This document shows positions 3,967-8,686 of a DNA stretch of 64,000 bases, piece by piece. The stretch's first letter is position 1; each line of letters opens with the position of its first letter. A program made the translations under genes and the position numbers. A model generated the notes under the pieces. The model was not told the origin of the DNA. It searched no databases and saw only the letters and a list, made by a program, of their open reading frames with translations. This DNA is from Pseudomonadota bacterium (GTDB taxonomy: Bacteria > Pseudomonadota > Gammaproteobacteria > Pseudomonadales > Cellvibrionaceae): contig JAZKFX010000039.1 of assembly GCA_040386215.1 (NCBI GenBank), positions 66,708 to 130,707 of the forward strand. The letters run 5' to 3'.

Positions 3967-5124
3967 ATGAAAACTGCCCTGTTTAATATCCACGATTTAA
4001 TTCTAGTGCTAACTCTCGCAGTTTGTCTGCTGCTAATGGTTTTTCAATTGCTCCTTTCCAGGCAAAAAACTATTGCGTCCTATTTATTATCTGGATTTTT
4101 TCTGTGTGTTGCTGCAAACGCATTGTGTAATTTGTTGTTGTGGAATAATTATATTCATCTGCACACTTCCCTGGCCAGGTATTTCGTCGTCTATGGATTG
4201 GTTATCAGTGTTATTGGAAAAGGTATTTTCTTATACTGGTACGTTGAAGCAATTACCCGTGAACATTTTTATCTTACGCCAAAAAAAATGCTGCACTCTA
4301 TCGCCCTGGGAATTGTTCTGTTTATGTTGATTAGTGCGAATGTTGACAGTGATGCCTTACGGTTTTTATCAGCGACGCAAACATCGCCGAACAAGAAAGT
4401 TGTGCATTGGCTTTGGCACTTGTTAAAAATTATACCGGTAATTTACGCGATTGCTGCAGTGATTATTGCGCAACGTTATAAACAATATCTAAAGGATTAT
4501 TATTCTAATTTACAGCTACAGGGACCTGAAGGGTTAATGCTACTAACTCTTGGCTTTGCGATAAGCTGGGGTTGGTCATTGTTGGTACATATTCTCGGTC
4601 AGTTTTTAAGTGCCGACCTGGCTGACAGCTTTGGCATTGCCGACAACTACATCACTTTTGTGCTGCTCAACGCGTTGTTTTTGTATAGCTTGCTGTATGC
4701 TCACGAGTTAATTGAAACCAAAGTAAAAATCAAAGAGAAGGAATCCCTACCTCTTTCCGCGCCAAATAAAAATGCAATTGAAAAGATTCAGCAAGCAATG
4801 GAAATTGACCAGCTGTATCTGCGACACAATTTAAATATTGAAACATTTTCAAAAAATATTGATATGAATTACCGCGAGGTTTCGAGCATTATTAATAATC
4901 ACTTCGGCACAAATTTTTTTGAATTTGTAAATGAATATCGGGTAAATAAAGCGAAGGCTATGTTGATCGATCCAACATTTGCAGAGAAAACTATTTTGTA
5001 TATTTTATTAGAATGTGGCTTTAACAGTAAATCATCCTTCCATCGGTTTTTTAAACGGTATGCAAAGATGACAGCGGCAGATTTTCGCAAAGAGTACACT
5101 AATAATGGCAGCATTGATTCTTGA
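3967..5124 (+). CDS. AraC-family transcriptional regulator with N-terminal multi-pass membrane domain
   Basis: About 6-7 hydrophobic segments, then an AraC HTH (LYLRHNLNI...VSSIINNHFGTNFFEFVNEYRV...ECGFNSKSSFHRFFKR). Confidence 0.88.
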   Translation: MKTALFNIHDLILVLTLAVCLLLMVFQLLLSRQKTIASYLLSGFFLCVAANALCNLLLWNNYIHLHTSLARYFVVYGLVISVIGKGIFLYWYVEAITREHFYLTPKKMLHSIALGIVLFMLISANVDSDALRFLSATQTSPNKKVVHWLWHLLKIIPVIYAIAAVIIAQRYKQYLKDYYSNLQLQGPEGLMLLTLGFAISWGWSLLVHILGQFLSADLADSFGIADNYITFVLLNALFLYSLLYAHELIETKVKIKEKESLPLSAPNKNAIEKIQQAMEIDQLYLRHNLNIETFSKNIDMNYREVSSIINNHFGTNFFEFVNEYRVNKAKAMLIDPTFAEKTILYILLECGFNSKSSFHRFFKRYAKMTAADFRKEYTNNGSIDS

Positions 5125-5201: not shown

Positions 5202-6359
5202 TCAAATTCTAGTAAATTTAATCCAATCAATATTGAAACCACCTGAGTTGGCGTAAATCGCTAAATTTTGCACGCCCGCTTGCAGATAAACATTGTGCGA
5301 AATTGTAGTGTAAGTTCCCCAGCCACCCGTATTGGGTACACCTATAGTGGCCAGCCCCACACCATTCCTATCTAACGTAAATTGTGCGGTCTGGAGAGCC
5401 GACGCTACTCGATATTCCACTCTGTATGTGCCGGTTTGTGGAATATTGACATTGGTGTATTTCAACCATTCTCTGGCATCGATATACCCCACTACACCCC
5501 CACTTACCACAACGCTGCCGCCTACCTCGTTATATTTTTCCGCTTCAATGAACACACTTGCTGAAGCAGTCGGCGCATCTGCAGGTACATTACCGGTAAA
5601 ACCTGTGGCGCCCTCGCGTGTAAGCGCAAGCACCAGCGTGCCATCTTTTACCAGAGCATTCGCAGCGGCAAAGTCGGCGTAGTTTTCGGCAAATGTCCAA
5701 TCCGCTTTCGCCCAACGATTGGTGTCAAAGCTATTGAAATCATCACGCCAACCTGCCACAAAACTATTTGTGGCAGCACTGTAAGGTTTGTATTCAATGT
5801 AATTTACAAACTGATAGACCGGCAAAATGCTGTCATTAAAAGTCCCCACCCAAGCCGATATATTAGCCGCCCAAATATTAAAACGCAGATCTTGGTTGCT
5901 CGTCAGACTGGAAACAAACTGTCCACCATTGATACGACGCACTTCGCGACCATCCATAAACCAGGCTATATAATTCGGCGTCCATTCCAATACATAGGTG
6001 TGGTAAGCATCGCCCAAGGATACTGCAGCCGTATGCACACCCTCTGCTTTAAGGGTTGGGCGCTGCGTGCCAATGATCACATTACTTTGCCATTGCGTAG
6101 CGTTGTTTTTACCGAAGACTTCAATGTCAATTTCTTCCCAAAAAGTATTGCCAACCTCTGAACCATTCTTGTAAGTAAAAAATGTCGATAAAACGCCGCT
6201 TCCTTTAGCCACTTTCATGCGTATTTCATAACGCCCGTATTTGTACGCTTGTTTAGAATAGATTTCTGCGGCTTTATAAGGCTTGGCTGAAACGCCGCAA
6301 ACAAAGAAACTGGCAACGACCAGCACACCCCAACGGATAACATGAGAAAGTTTTAACAT
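5202..6359 (-). CDS. GH16 endo-beta-glucanase (lichenase-like) with C-terminal CBM6
   Basis: Catalytic EEIDIE motif; YGRYEIRMK, YHTYVLEWTP. IEAEKY...GYIDAREWLKY...RVAS...TGGW...FNIDWIKF matches CBM6. Start moved to the ATG at 6359, which has an AAAGGT RBS and gives a signal peptide. Confidence 0.9.
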   Translation of the reverse strand: MLKLSHVIRWGVLVVASFFVCGVSAKPYKAAEIYSKQAYKYGRYEIRMKVAKGSGVLSTFFTYKNGSEVGNTFWEEIDIEVFGKNNATQWQSNVIIGTQRPTLKAEGVHTAAVSLGDAYHTYVLEWTPNYIAWFMDGREVRRINGGQFVSSLTSNQDLRFNIWAANISAWVGTFNDSILPVYQFVNYIEYKPYSAATNSFVAGWRDDFNSFDTNRWAKADWTFAENYADFAAANALVKDGTLVLALTREGATGFTGNVPADAPTASASVFIEAEKYNEVGGSVVVSGGVVGYIDAREWLKYTNVNIPQTGTYRVEYRVASALQTAQFTLDRNGVGLATIGVPNTGGWGTYTTISHNVYLQAGVQNLAIYANSGGFNIDWIKFTRI

Positions 6360-6546
6360 GTGAGTACCTTTATGATTATTTGACGACTCGGTTGTACGGC
6401 CAAAAACTGGCTCGCACGCAATAATCAATTACTCGCTCGATACTGTCGCACCACTTTGCTCAAACTGCCGAATATGGTCCATGGCGTTACGCCGAGAAAC
6501 TGATACCCATTAACTTTTTCTTACATTTCAACTTGCAAATCCGATC

Positions 6547-6582
6547 TTACACTTGTAATCTATGATCGACTTACAAATGTAA
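6547..6582. promoter_or_regulatory. Two BlaI/MecI-type operator palindromes
   Basis: TTACACTTGTAA (6547-6558) and TTACAAATGTAA (6571-6582) match the TACA-N2-TGTA core known for BlaI/MecI/CopY. They lie about 40-75 bp upstream of the repressor gene. Confidence 0.8.
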
Positions 6583-6620
6583 TCCCTAGTTTTCTCAACT
6601 TAATTTACAGGAAATACGCC

Positions 6621-7013
6621 ATGGAACCAGACTTACAACTCACAGACAGCGAATGGGACTTAATGAAGATTCTTTGGGAAGCTGCCCCAGCTTCCGTCAA
6701 TGCAATAGCAGAGCGAGCTCAACAAACCAACCAATGGCACCCTAAAACTGTTCGAACAATGCTGATCCGTCTAGATAAGAAAGGCTTGGTCAACTACTCA
6801 ATACGCGATGGAATTCAACACTATCAGCCACTGTTTAGCCGGGAAGAGTGCGAATCTCAAGCAACACAATCGTTTCTTCAACGGGTATTTGATGGCGCGC
6901 TGACACCCATGGTTGCGCACTTTTCCAGCAAAAGAAAACTCACTCCAGAAGAAAAACGAGCGCTGCTAGCACTGCTGAATGATAGTGAAACTGCCGCGGG
7001 GGATGAAAAATGA
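6621..7013 (+). CDS. BlaI/MecI/CopY-family repressor
   Basis: LTDSEWDLMKILWE...WHPKTVRTMLIRLDKKGLV...YQPLFSREEC...FLQRVFDGALTPMVAHF. Confidence 0.93.
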   Translation: MEPDLQLTDSEWDLMKILWEAAPASVNAIAERAQQTNQWHPKTVRTMLIRLDKKGLVNYSIRDGIQHYQPLFSREECESQATQSFLQRVFDGALTPMVAHFSSKRKLTPEEKRALLALLNDSETAAGDEK

Positions 7014-8650
7014 ATCTTATTTTAAATCTGGTACCAGCGATGAATAATATGGCTGAGTGGGTGGCAATTGCTTCACTAAAAACCATTCCCTTAATTGCGT
7101 TTATTGTTGTAGTAAAACATATTTTTCGCAAAAGATTGTCAGCTGCATCCATACATTTGTTATGGTTAAGTGTTTTTATGAGCCTAAGTATTCCTGTTGG
7201 TTGGGATATACAACTTGAGCGTTTTACTCTCGATAATTCACTTGTCGTAATATCATCAGAGCCCGACATAAAAAATAACAACACGCCAAAGTTTCAACGC
7301 CAGATTGTTATTGGCAATGAAATCATTAGCTCTCAGCCAGACTTTAATCCCACACAAACAGCTTCATGGATCGAGACTTATACTGTCGCACTGCGCCAAA
7401 ATTATCGTCTTATTTTAGCCTGCCTCTGGTTGAGCGGGACGATAATACTGCTCGGTCTAACAGCCATAAGCACATTTCGTTTCCACCGCATTAAAACAAA
7501 TTCATTGATAGTCACAACAGACTTAGCAAATTTATTTAATCTATGCAAAATGGAAATAGGACTCAGCAAATCCATTCAACTTTTATCCAGCCAGGAAATC
7601 CAAAGCCCAATCACGTTAGGTTGGCTGCGACCGGCTATATTACTTCCCCAAAATATTGAAAAAAACCTCTCGTCAGAAAACCTGAAATATATATTGCTAC
7701 ATGAACTGGGTCATATAAAAAGACATGATATTTTTTTCAACTGGATAGCATGCTTGATAAATATTCTGCATTGGTTTAATCCACTTGTTTGGTTAGCCTT
7801 CAAACGAATGCGAATGGATATGGAAATAGCTTGCGATGCATTGGTACTTAGCCACCTGCATCAATCACAGCGCAAAAACTATGGAGCAACCTTGATAGAG
7901 ATTAGCGAAATACCACGCGTTTCACACCGGGCAATAACAACTCTCGGTATTTTAGAAAATCACACTGATCTAAAAGAGAGATTAAAAATGATTAAGGAAT
8001 TTACGACTATGAACATAAAAAACACCACGTTTTTTGGCGCTATTTTAATGCTAGCAACCGTCACATCATTAGCCCAACCTATAGCATCTACCACAATCAA
8101 ACCCACAGCAGCATTGGAATCAAAAGCCACTACCGATTCAGAATCAACCATTACACTGCAAGAATTTGCCGCTATTGCTGAAAAAGATTTAAAAATAAAA
8201 GTTTTAGTTGGGCAAGAAGATTCACCTAAAAAAATTCCATTTAGTCCAAGCAATGAACCGTTGAATTACGGGCAATTACTCACCCAGCTTAAGATTAATC
8301 AATTTACCGCCTATAAATCCAAAGACTACATTCAAATTGTTAAAATAAATGATGCGCGATATTTATCTATTCCAACAGTAGAAAAAAATGGAACCTATTA
8401 TGACGATGAGATTGTTACTGATTATTTTAAAATGGAAAAAGCTTGCGCAGCGCAAATTCTCGTAGCAACAAGGCCTTTAGTACCACAGTACGGTCATCTT
8501 TCAACTTATGAAGATACCCGTACAATAATTATCGTTGATACTTATGGAAATATTCAGCGAGTAAGGGGGGCAATAAAAGCGATGGAAGACAATTTAGATA
8601 AACCGATGAATTGTTCCGCCGCAAAATTATCAACCAAAAATCCTTCTTAA
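7010..8650 (+). CDS. BlaR1/M56-family membrane metallopeptidase with C-terminal secretin (GspD) N0-N1-like domain
   Basis: ATGA overlap with the repressor. SPITLGWLRPAILLP, HELGHIKRHD, WFNPLVW, EIACD and LKERLKMI are M56 motifs. The C-terminal DDEIVT...RPLVPQYGHL..YEDTRTIIIVD..GNIQR resembles GspD N1. Confidence 0.85.
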   Translation: MNLILNLVPAMNNMAEWVAIASLKTIPLIAFIVVVKHIFRKRLSAASIHLLWLSVFMSLSIPVGWDIQLERFTLDNSLVVISSEPDIKNNNTPKFQRQIVIGNEIISSQPDFNPTQTASWIETYTVALRQNYRLILACLWLSGTIILLGLTAISTFRFHRIKTNSLIVTTDLANLFNLCKMEIGLSKSIQLLSSQEIQSPITLGWLRPAILLPQNIEKNLSSENLKYILLHELGHIKRHDIFFNWIACLINILHWFNPLVWLAFKRMRMDMEIACDALVLSHLHQSQRKNYGATLIEISEIPRVSHRAITTLGILENHTDLKERLKMIKEFTTMNIKNTTFFGAILMLATVTSLAQPIASTTIKPTAALESKATTDSESTITLQEFAAIAEKDLKIKVLVGQEDSPKKIPFSPSNEPLNYGQLLTQLKINQFTAYKSKDYIQIVKINDARYLSIPTVEKNGTYYDDEIVTDYFKMEKACAAQILVATRPLVPQYGHLSTYEDTRTIIIVDTYGNIQRVRGAIKAMEDNLDKPMNCSAAKLSTKNPS

Positions 8651-8662
8651 AGCACCAAAAAG

Positions 8663-8686
8663 AAACAGGCCTTCGTCGGCCTGTTT
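8663..8686. terminator. Intrinsic terminator between M56 and acs
   Basis: AAACAGGCC-TTCGTC-GGCCTGTTT perfect 9-bp stem flanked by A and T tracts. Confidence 0.75.

Follow-up and report, generated by a model that had tools for sequence, protein, structure and literature searches.

Here we describe a compact two-gene switch of the BlaI/BlaR1 type in which the periplasmic sensor is a secretin-type N0-N1 domain. The switch lies on a 64,000-nucleotide stretch of DNA from a Cellvibrionaceae bacterium (GenBank assembly GCA_040386215.1, contig JAZKFX010000039.1, forward strand), to which we refer as the window, and is bounded by positions 6533 and 8686. It consists of a blaI-type repressor gene and a gene for an M56 membrane zinc protease, preceded by two operator palindromes. 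To our knowledge, BlaR1/BlaI systems are known almost solely as antibiotic sensors, and full-text literature searches found no paper joining BlaR1 with GspD or with N0 domains. The core of the switch is classical; the sensor belongs to a class that is undescribed in the literature searched. The new element is a lineage of N0-N1 modules marked by a pair of cysteines, which occurs both in free and in TlpA-fused forms and whose function we infer.

In the window switch and its relatives, a protease-repressor core appears to have been re-used with a protein-interaction domain from secretion pores. The reading that we favor, and to which we give somewhat better than even credence, is that of a functional, self-repressing BlaI/BlaR1-type switch with N0-N1 as its periplasmic protein-binding receptor. 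The sensing of secretion failure is known mainly through the general Psp response. If the ligand of the switch is a type II secretion system (T2SS) part or cargo, the switch would open to genetics the question of how bacteria become aware that secretion has failed, and would be useful for Cellvibrio-type enzyme secretors in biomass conversion.

Results

The sensor is a secretin-type N0-N1 domain

The M56 gene (7010-8650, plus strand) encodes a protein of 546 amino acids, and within its last ~170 periplasmic residues a region spanning residues 379-535 shows homology with N0 and N1 of the type II secretins. A Thr/Ser/Pro-rich periplasmic linker that varies among homologues (residues 357-378, 8078..8143, plus strand) leads into this region; in the full-length AlphaFold2 model the predicted local distance difference test score (pLDDT) is below 50 over residues 334-377. 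The N0 domain (residues 379-449, 8144..8356, plus strand) has the order beta-alpha-beta-beta-alpha-beta-beta and is assigned from a model with pLDDT above 90, from Foldseek and from BLASTP. The N1 domain (residues 466-528, 8405..8593, plus strand), assigned from profiles, BLASTP and the model, has the order beta-alpha-beta-beta-alpha and carries the RPLVPQYGHL motif common to GspD.

Several comparisons converge on this assignment. The GspD model TIGR02517 matches residues 418-528 with E 4e-14 over profile positions 45-157, at a score of 52 bits on the M56 protein against a cut-off of 351 bits, and crystal chains of XcpQ/GspD N0-N1 are matched with E 3.6e-6. The genome has its own GspD, encoded next to gspC on contig C17, and BLASTP aligns the sensor with residues 17-198 of this resident protein at 35 % identity (E 7e-26), co-linear from the signal peptide to the end of N1. 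Over the sensor, the full-length model has pLDDT 75-90, and its Foldseek matches list BlaR1 first and then the N0-N1 domains of XcpQ, GspD and PulD. A domain-only AlphaFold2 model, for which an alignment of 36 rows was used, attains pLDDT 91.7 and a predicted template modelling score (pTM) of 0.83 with the secondary structure expected of N0 and N1; its top 40 Foldseek matches in the PDB (E <1e-3) are all secretin N0-N1. The arrangement of the two domains is closest to that of PulD in the assembled outer-membrane complex 6hcg (query-normalized template modelling score, TMq, 0.72), a structure that also contains the homology-region (HR) domain of PulC.

The original prediction had read this likeness from the sequence and had named the fold as one of the points on which it could fail. 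In the Foldseek comparison the domain does model onto N0-N1, in agreement with the profile matches and with the identity to the resident GspD. The likeness to GspD, XcpQ and PulD (3ezj, 3oss, 4e9j, 6hcg) extends over the two-domain fold, the N1 motif and the co-linear order from the signal-peptide or transmembrane segment onwards. In contrast to those secretins, the sensor lacks the N2 and N3 domains, the secretin pore and the S domain, is anchored in the inner membrane and carries two invariant cysteines. No N2/N3 domain, secretin pore or PF00263 match was found in the M56 protein, which ends 11 residues past Cys535.

Protease and repressor retain the classical design

The protease module (residues 1-356, 7010..8077, plus strand) is of the BlaR1 type. 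It matches PF05569 with E 1e-64 over residues 21-328 and BlaR1 structure 8exs with 2e-14 (phmmer) and 2e-11 (Foldseek). HELGH at residues 231-235 (nt 7700-7714) and Glu272 (nt 7823-7825) fall on the residues that bind zinc in S. aureus BlaR1, and His231, Glu232, His235 and Glu272 are invariant in 24 homologues at 41-84 % identity. An LGILENH loop, likewise invariant in the 24 homologues, aligns with the BlaR1 autocleavage site Ser283-Phe284. The full-length model has four transmembrane (TM) helices and a disordered, variable periplasmic loop at residues 66-130. The NCBIfam blaR1 model matches only at profile positions 12-332 of 585 (207 bits against a cut-off of 400), and neither domain models nor Foldseek found a transpeptidase-like/SxxK penicillin-binding sensor domain in the M56 protein.

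The last helix, TM4 (residues ~339-356), ends in an invariant Ala-Gln-Pro at the position where BlaR1 is shed by signal peptidase, and this small-residue/Gln junction past the last TM helix makes shedding of the N0-N1 module possible by analogy. We also observed that Met334 and TM4 (8009-8080, residues 334-357) resemble a signal peptide (MNIKNTTFFGAILMLATVTSLA/QP) and align with that of the resident GspD, and that AAGGAA stands 10 nt upstream. An internal start at Met334, or release of the module by signal peptidase, is conceivable from these sequence features.

The repressor gene (6621..7013, plus strand) encodes a winged-helix protein of 130 amino acids that matches PF03965 over residues 7-120 (E 1.6e-28) and the NCBIfam BlaI model (1.9e-29), and its stop codon overlaps the start of the M56 gene as ATGA. 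It aligns with MecI (1sd6) without gaps over 115 residues. In this alignment His100-Phe101 falls on the cleavage site Asn101-Phe102 of BlaI and MecI (PMC9834060), with P1' kept and P1 changed. A CopY-type C-terminal CxCx4CxC is absent: the sole cysteine is Cys77, the C-terminus ends in LNDSETAAGDEK, and the CopY model TIGR02698 scores 58 bits against a cut-off of 122.

Much is common to this switch and the BlaR1/BlaI and MecR1/MecI systems of S. aureus and B. licheniformis (PMC9834060): the PF03965 winged-helix repressor, the TACA/TGTA palindromes on its own promoter, the overlap of repressor and sensor genes, the four-TM M56 gluzincin with HExxH...E and aligned autocleavage loop, and the Phe at the repressor cleavage site, where P1 is His here and Asn there. 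There are also differences. The acyl-enzyme penicillin-binding domain of BlaR1 and MecR1 is replaced by secretin N0-N1, the setting is a Gram-negative periplasm, the external loop is long and not conserved, and no resistance gene such as blaZ or mecA is under control. No beta-lactamase or penicillin-binding protein gene was found within ~6 kb on either side of the unit. The earlier description of a repressor coupled to an M56 peptidase with an intact HELGH, with neither a penicillin-binding sensor nor a bla gene nearby, is borne out by these searches, and the features of repressor, protease and operators are those expected of an intact proteolytic module of the BlaI/BlaR1 type.

A dual operator marks a single secure target

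Two palindromes precede blaI. Operator 1 (6547..6558, plus strand) is a perfect 5+2+5 palindrome, TTACACTTGTAA, conserved among loci, and operator 2 (6571..6582, plus strand), TTACAAATGTAA, lies 24 bp from it, centre to centre. They match the TACA/TGTA core that BlaI, MecI and CopY use. An inverted repeat of this kind on the self-promoter of a PF03965-type repressor is thus present as two perfect TTACAnnTGTAA sites, which are candidate binding sites. A putative promoter consists of a conserved -35 box TTGCAA (6533..6538, plus strand) and, 17 bp after it, a -10 box TAATCT (6556..6561, plus strand) that overlaps operator 1. The pair scores 8/12 in a scan for the promoter consensus and so fell under the threshold for listing. 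If TTGCAA/TAATCT is the promoter, operator 1 would cover the -10 box and operator 2 the region of the transcription start.

Conservation argues for this layout. The window and three homologous loci all retain the string (C)TTGCAAA-N7-9-(A/C)TTACAnnTGTAATCT-N9-TTACAnnTGTAA(T/G)C, where the other intergenic DNA has diverged. Within it, (C)TTGCAAA is retained in the window, L010, L012 and L013 although the flanking intergenic DNA differs; the -10 string TGTAATCT is kept in all four loci compared, the box having A as its second base and T as its sixth; and operator 1 of L013 has one mismatch. The same operator pair, spaced 24-25 bp, also occurs in L020 (a metagenome-assembled genome, MAG, of Spongiibacteraceae), L021 (a Marinagarivorans MAG), L022 and G530. 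In total, the dual operator and the -35 and -10 boxes are conserved in seven related loci with diverged intergenic DNA around them.

The pair of TTACA-N2-TGTAA operators that had been described from the letters proved to be singular. These two sites are the only matches in the window, where 0.06 would be expected, and the 5.05-Mb genome (43 % GC) holds four matches including them, when simple base composition predicts about ten. No comparable second pair, at 23-26 bp spacing and with at most 3 mismatches in total, was found in the genome, and only 3 of the 61 family genomes scanned have comparable pairs. The genome-wide scan that had been proposed for defining the regulon therefore returned the one dual-operator locus and no further secure target. 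Perfect 12-mers elsewhere stand at chance level against a reversed-pattern control, in this genome and in three relatives, and a larger regulon built on them was rejected. The only secure target of the repressor is its own operon.

One further site deserves mention. A perfect palindrome, CTTACATTTGTAAC, which resembles a BlaI/CopY-type box, stands outside the window (G000:C36:198698-198711), ~150 bp upstream of a gene for a TolC-like outer-membrane channel; among 8 genomes sampled from the genus, 7 have it without a mismatch, and it occurs also at L133, L140 and L170-L173. It is equally exact in G030, G465 and G539, congeners without the blaI/M56-N0N1 pair, and for this reason we do not assign the site upstream of tolC to this BlaI.

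The sensor belongs to an old lineage marked by two cysteines

Two cysteines set the sensor apart. Cys479 (8444..8446, plus strand) stands just before N1 helix 1 and Cys535 (8612..8614, plus strand) eight residues after N1 helix 2. Across 26 diverse members of the family (24-64 % identity), no residue other than these two and Asn514 is invariant. Of 15 M56-fused representatives 13 have the pair, as do at least 39 short ones, and none of 18 secretin representatives has a cysteine aligned at either position. The two residues lie at the same end of the beta-alpha-beta-beta-alpha domain, so that a disulfide stapling the tail of the module is plausible from the N1 topology, and we consider that Cys479 and Cys535 are probably joined in this way.

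When residues 374-546 were searched exhaustively against 1.84 billion representatives, 603 relatives were found. The nearest are M56 fusions of 510-575 amino acids and many short proteins of 185-215 amino acids made of a signal peptide and the module; secretins follow only afterwards. Some short relatives are evident fragments of fusions, since they start at MIK... or at the ...AQP junction, and others with signal peptides of their own are real genes (L020, L021, L023). A maximum-likelihood tree separates 20 secretin N0-N1 sequences, the resident GspD among them, from 26 modules of both the fused and the free kind (100/100 support). The two kinds are intermixed in this tree, in which some of the free modules may be fusion fragments. 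The split led us to reject a recent capture of the sensor from the resident gspD: judged from the sequences, the sensor is part of an old sister lineage, separate from GspD and marked by the two invariant cysteines. No Pfam or NCBIfam model reaches its cut-off on this lineage except for a borderline Secretin_N match in P0062 (28.7 against 28.2 bits). The free proteins of ~190 amino acids and the TlpA-fused variants constitute an unnamed domain lineage, which databases label 'M56 family metallopeptidase' or 'general secretion pathway protein D', or do not label at all.

The related operons L020 and L021 have the same operators and the same blaI, and their M56 protein is longer (734-739 amino acids). 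In it the M56 part is followed by the Cys-pair N0-N1 module and this in turn by a domain of thioredoxin fold, which bears CEVC or CKSC and resembles ResA, TlpA and DsbE most; at least some of the family thus links the module with thiol chemistry. Beyond blaI and the M56 gene, these operons contain nothing but one or two genes for free Cys-pair modules, so that their sole 'cargo' is more of the module. Elsewhere, the free modules P0060, P0079, L023 and L186 have unrelated neighbors, and hence no universal partner gene.

The lineage is sparsely distributed. The genus of this genome appears to include Cellvibrio mixtus, as G487 has the same site, to within 1 bp, as the genome behind the C. mixtus locus L028. 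Four of seven tested genomes of the genus have the blaI/M56-N0N1 pair, which is not in G030, G465 and G539, and all seven have GspD. Among 401 genomes of the order, the Cys-pair module occurs in three (this genome, that of L020 and one other), and the module profile finds GspD N0-N1 in 301 with E 1e-20 to 1e-41. A metagenome scan gave four loci only, and a profile search of 90 % clusters gave four proteins.

Two loci show the module in other company. In a Pseudomonadota MAG (L023:5197-6456), free Cys-pair N0-N1 genes encoding 201 and 215 amino acids stand in tandem with no blaI or M56 gene within 5 kb. In a Steroidobacteraceae MAG (L098:3810-6500), an extracytoplasmic function (ECF) sigma factor and an anti-sigma-like protein with PBP_like_2 precede a secreted N0-N1-like protein, which is free and has no counterpart of the first family cysteine. 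L098 may be a second kind of signaling system using such a module.

Discussion

A probable protein-binding receptor on a predicted repressor-cleaving protease

Two known systems suggest how the switch could work. In BlaR1, signaling involves repositioning of the sensor and shedding by signal peptidase past the last TM helix (PMC9834060). FecR and PupR, sigma regulators of cell-surface signaling, are, like the M56 protein, inner-membrane signaling proteins with a periplasmic end of the N0-like STN type, and there the STN-type domain docks on an outer-membrane protein and the signal passes by regulated proteolysis (PMC7186176, PMC11637429). The output differs: in FecR/PupR an ECF sigma factor is freed by site-1 and site-2 proteases, whereas here the built-in M56 protease would cut the repressor, and no partner transducer was identified. 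N0 itself is documented as a surface to which HR domains dock, those of GspC (PMC3169554) and of GspB (PMC9239104), and together with STN docking in FecR/PupR this makes a protein partner the most natural ligand.

On the reading that we favor, dimers of BlaI on the two palindromes would repress their own operon by occupying the -10 box and the transcription-start region. The M56 protein would be embedded in the inner membrane, its zinc protease on the cytoplasmic side, and the ~25-residue linker would tether in the periplasm an N0-N1 module that is probably stapled by Cys479-Cys535. [quoted passage not shown] The leading candidates for the partner would be the T2SS parts whose usual binding site is secretin N0-N1 (the GspC or GspB HR domains), or else cargo of secretion; by analogy, parts or cargo of the T2SS are plausible as first ligand candidates. 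The output would be more of the switch, to which related operons would add free N0-N1 copies, and because of these copies the module may be an effector as well as a sensor.

Several observations weigh against this reading. The gene pair has no conserved T2SS neighbor, and gspC-gspD lie on another contig. Three of the seven congeneric species tested lack the pair and all have GspD, so type II secretion does not in general depend on the switch. Redox chemistry, over simple docking, is what the invariant cysteines and the CxxC domains fused in relatives point to. A switch that targets only itself is an odd design, which means that a regulon of weaker single sites may have escaped detection.

The nature of the ligand is where the alternatives divide. 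A more specific proposal is a dedicated T2SS monitor, the reading of the original prediction. The tethered N0-N1 would then compete with GspD for the GspC HR domain or join the N-domain ring of the secretin, and the switch would fire when the secretin is missing, mislocalized or overloaded. The identity to the resident GspD over both N0 and N1, the matches of the family profile to GspD N0-N1 across the order and the established interaction of N0 with HR (PMC3169554, PMC9239104) all speak for it, as do a modeled N0/N1 arrangement that fits PulD in the PulC-bound assembly and a host that is a heavy secretor of polysaccharide-degrading enzymes. Yet the lineage of the sensor is an old one, distinct from GspD, it is unlinked to gsp genes and missing from congeners that keep GspD, and the glucanase that neighbors the switch is not conserved. 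The N0 strand and turn that contact GspC also appear ~two residues shorter than in GspD, as judged by eye with the structure as a guide, the BLASTP alignment being shifted and unreliable here. We regard such a monitor as doubtful. A broader and somewhat more doubtful proposal is that the Cys-stapled N0-N1 is an unrecognized periplasmic signaling or effector domain: tethered to M56, it would report the state of the T2SS (free GspC/GspB HR domains, unexported cargo), would make more of itself together with free copies as buffer or decoy, and would take thiol chemistry as a second input. If true, a report on the T2SS by the Cys-stapled module would be the first dedicated secretion checkpoint working by repressor cleavage.

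Thiol-redox sensing, which the original prediction did not consider, is a serious rival to secretion sensing, even if we give it slightly less credence still. Formation or reduction of a Cys479-Cys535 bond would move the N1 tail and with it the sensor, switching the protease in response to failure of oxidative folding, to reductive stress or to oxidants such as hypochlorite or copper, and in relatives the fused TlpA/ResA-like domain would reset the disulfide. In favor of such a sensor, invariance among the 26 family members is limited to two cysteines and one Asn, with no such cysteine in the sampled secretins, and orthologous operons with the same operators (L020 and L021) place a CEVC or CKSC domain directly after the module. 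The window protein, on the other hand, has no CxxC domain, the free relative at L098 lacks the first cysteine, and a plain thiol switch does not need a whole N0-N1 fold with its RPLVPQYGHL; a conserved disulfide may simply stabilize a module that has lost N2 and the ring contacts of a true secretin. The classical ligands, beta-lactams as for BlaR1 or copper as for CopY, are hardly credible. Models of BlaI, MecI and CopY give scores on the repressor, which shares its fold and the TACAnnTGTA 'cop box' with CopY/TcrY. But there is no transpeptidase-like/SxxK sensor and no bla or mec gene within 6 kb, and the repressor differs from CopY/TcrY in the lack of the C-terminal metal-binding cysteines (CxCx4CxC), in a CopY score far under the cut-off and in a partner that is a membrane protease and not a copper chaperone. 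On the anatomy predicted from the sequence, sensing of beta-lactams and of copper is contradicted and can be excluded.

Genomic setting

The unit ends at a GC-rich hairpin (8663..8686, no strand assigned) between the convergent M56 and acs genes, likely a terminator shared by the two. It has a 9-bp stem and a T-run on the minus strand, and the T-run on the plus strand is of 4 T only. The downstream genes acs, panD and panC are common to the window and Cellvibrio sp. 79, and L013 and L022 share acs alone.

Upstream, a domain-model search identified the divergent gene as a secreted glucanase with GH16 and CBM6 (window 5202-6428, minus strand), which stands in the place of an S41 peptidase and Smr in Cellvibrio sp. 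79. The original prediction had pointed to this gene. A link with the switch finds no support: the same position is taken by Smr in three other loci and by an unknown gene in one, and both operators are on the blaI promoter, ~190 bp from the glucanase start. Because the upstream neighbor varies among loci, the glucanase next to the switch is a local accident, the result of a local gene replacement, and we rejected it as a target of BlaI. Further upstream, an AraC-type regulator (window 3967-5124, plus strand), whose N-terminal ~250 residues form a multi-pass membrane domain, has a homologue in the corresponding place of Cellvibrio sp. 79 (L012).

The genome holds two further blaI-M56 pairs, L008 on contig C5 and L009 on contig C3, which have different sensors. 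Their operators are other palindromes (ACTACG.../CTACGTA and CTACTATA.../TATAGTAG), and cross-talk with the switch described here was rejected on account of these different motifs. Of their sensors, one has no Pfam domain but repeated segments containing cysteines, and the other has DUF3471.

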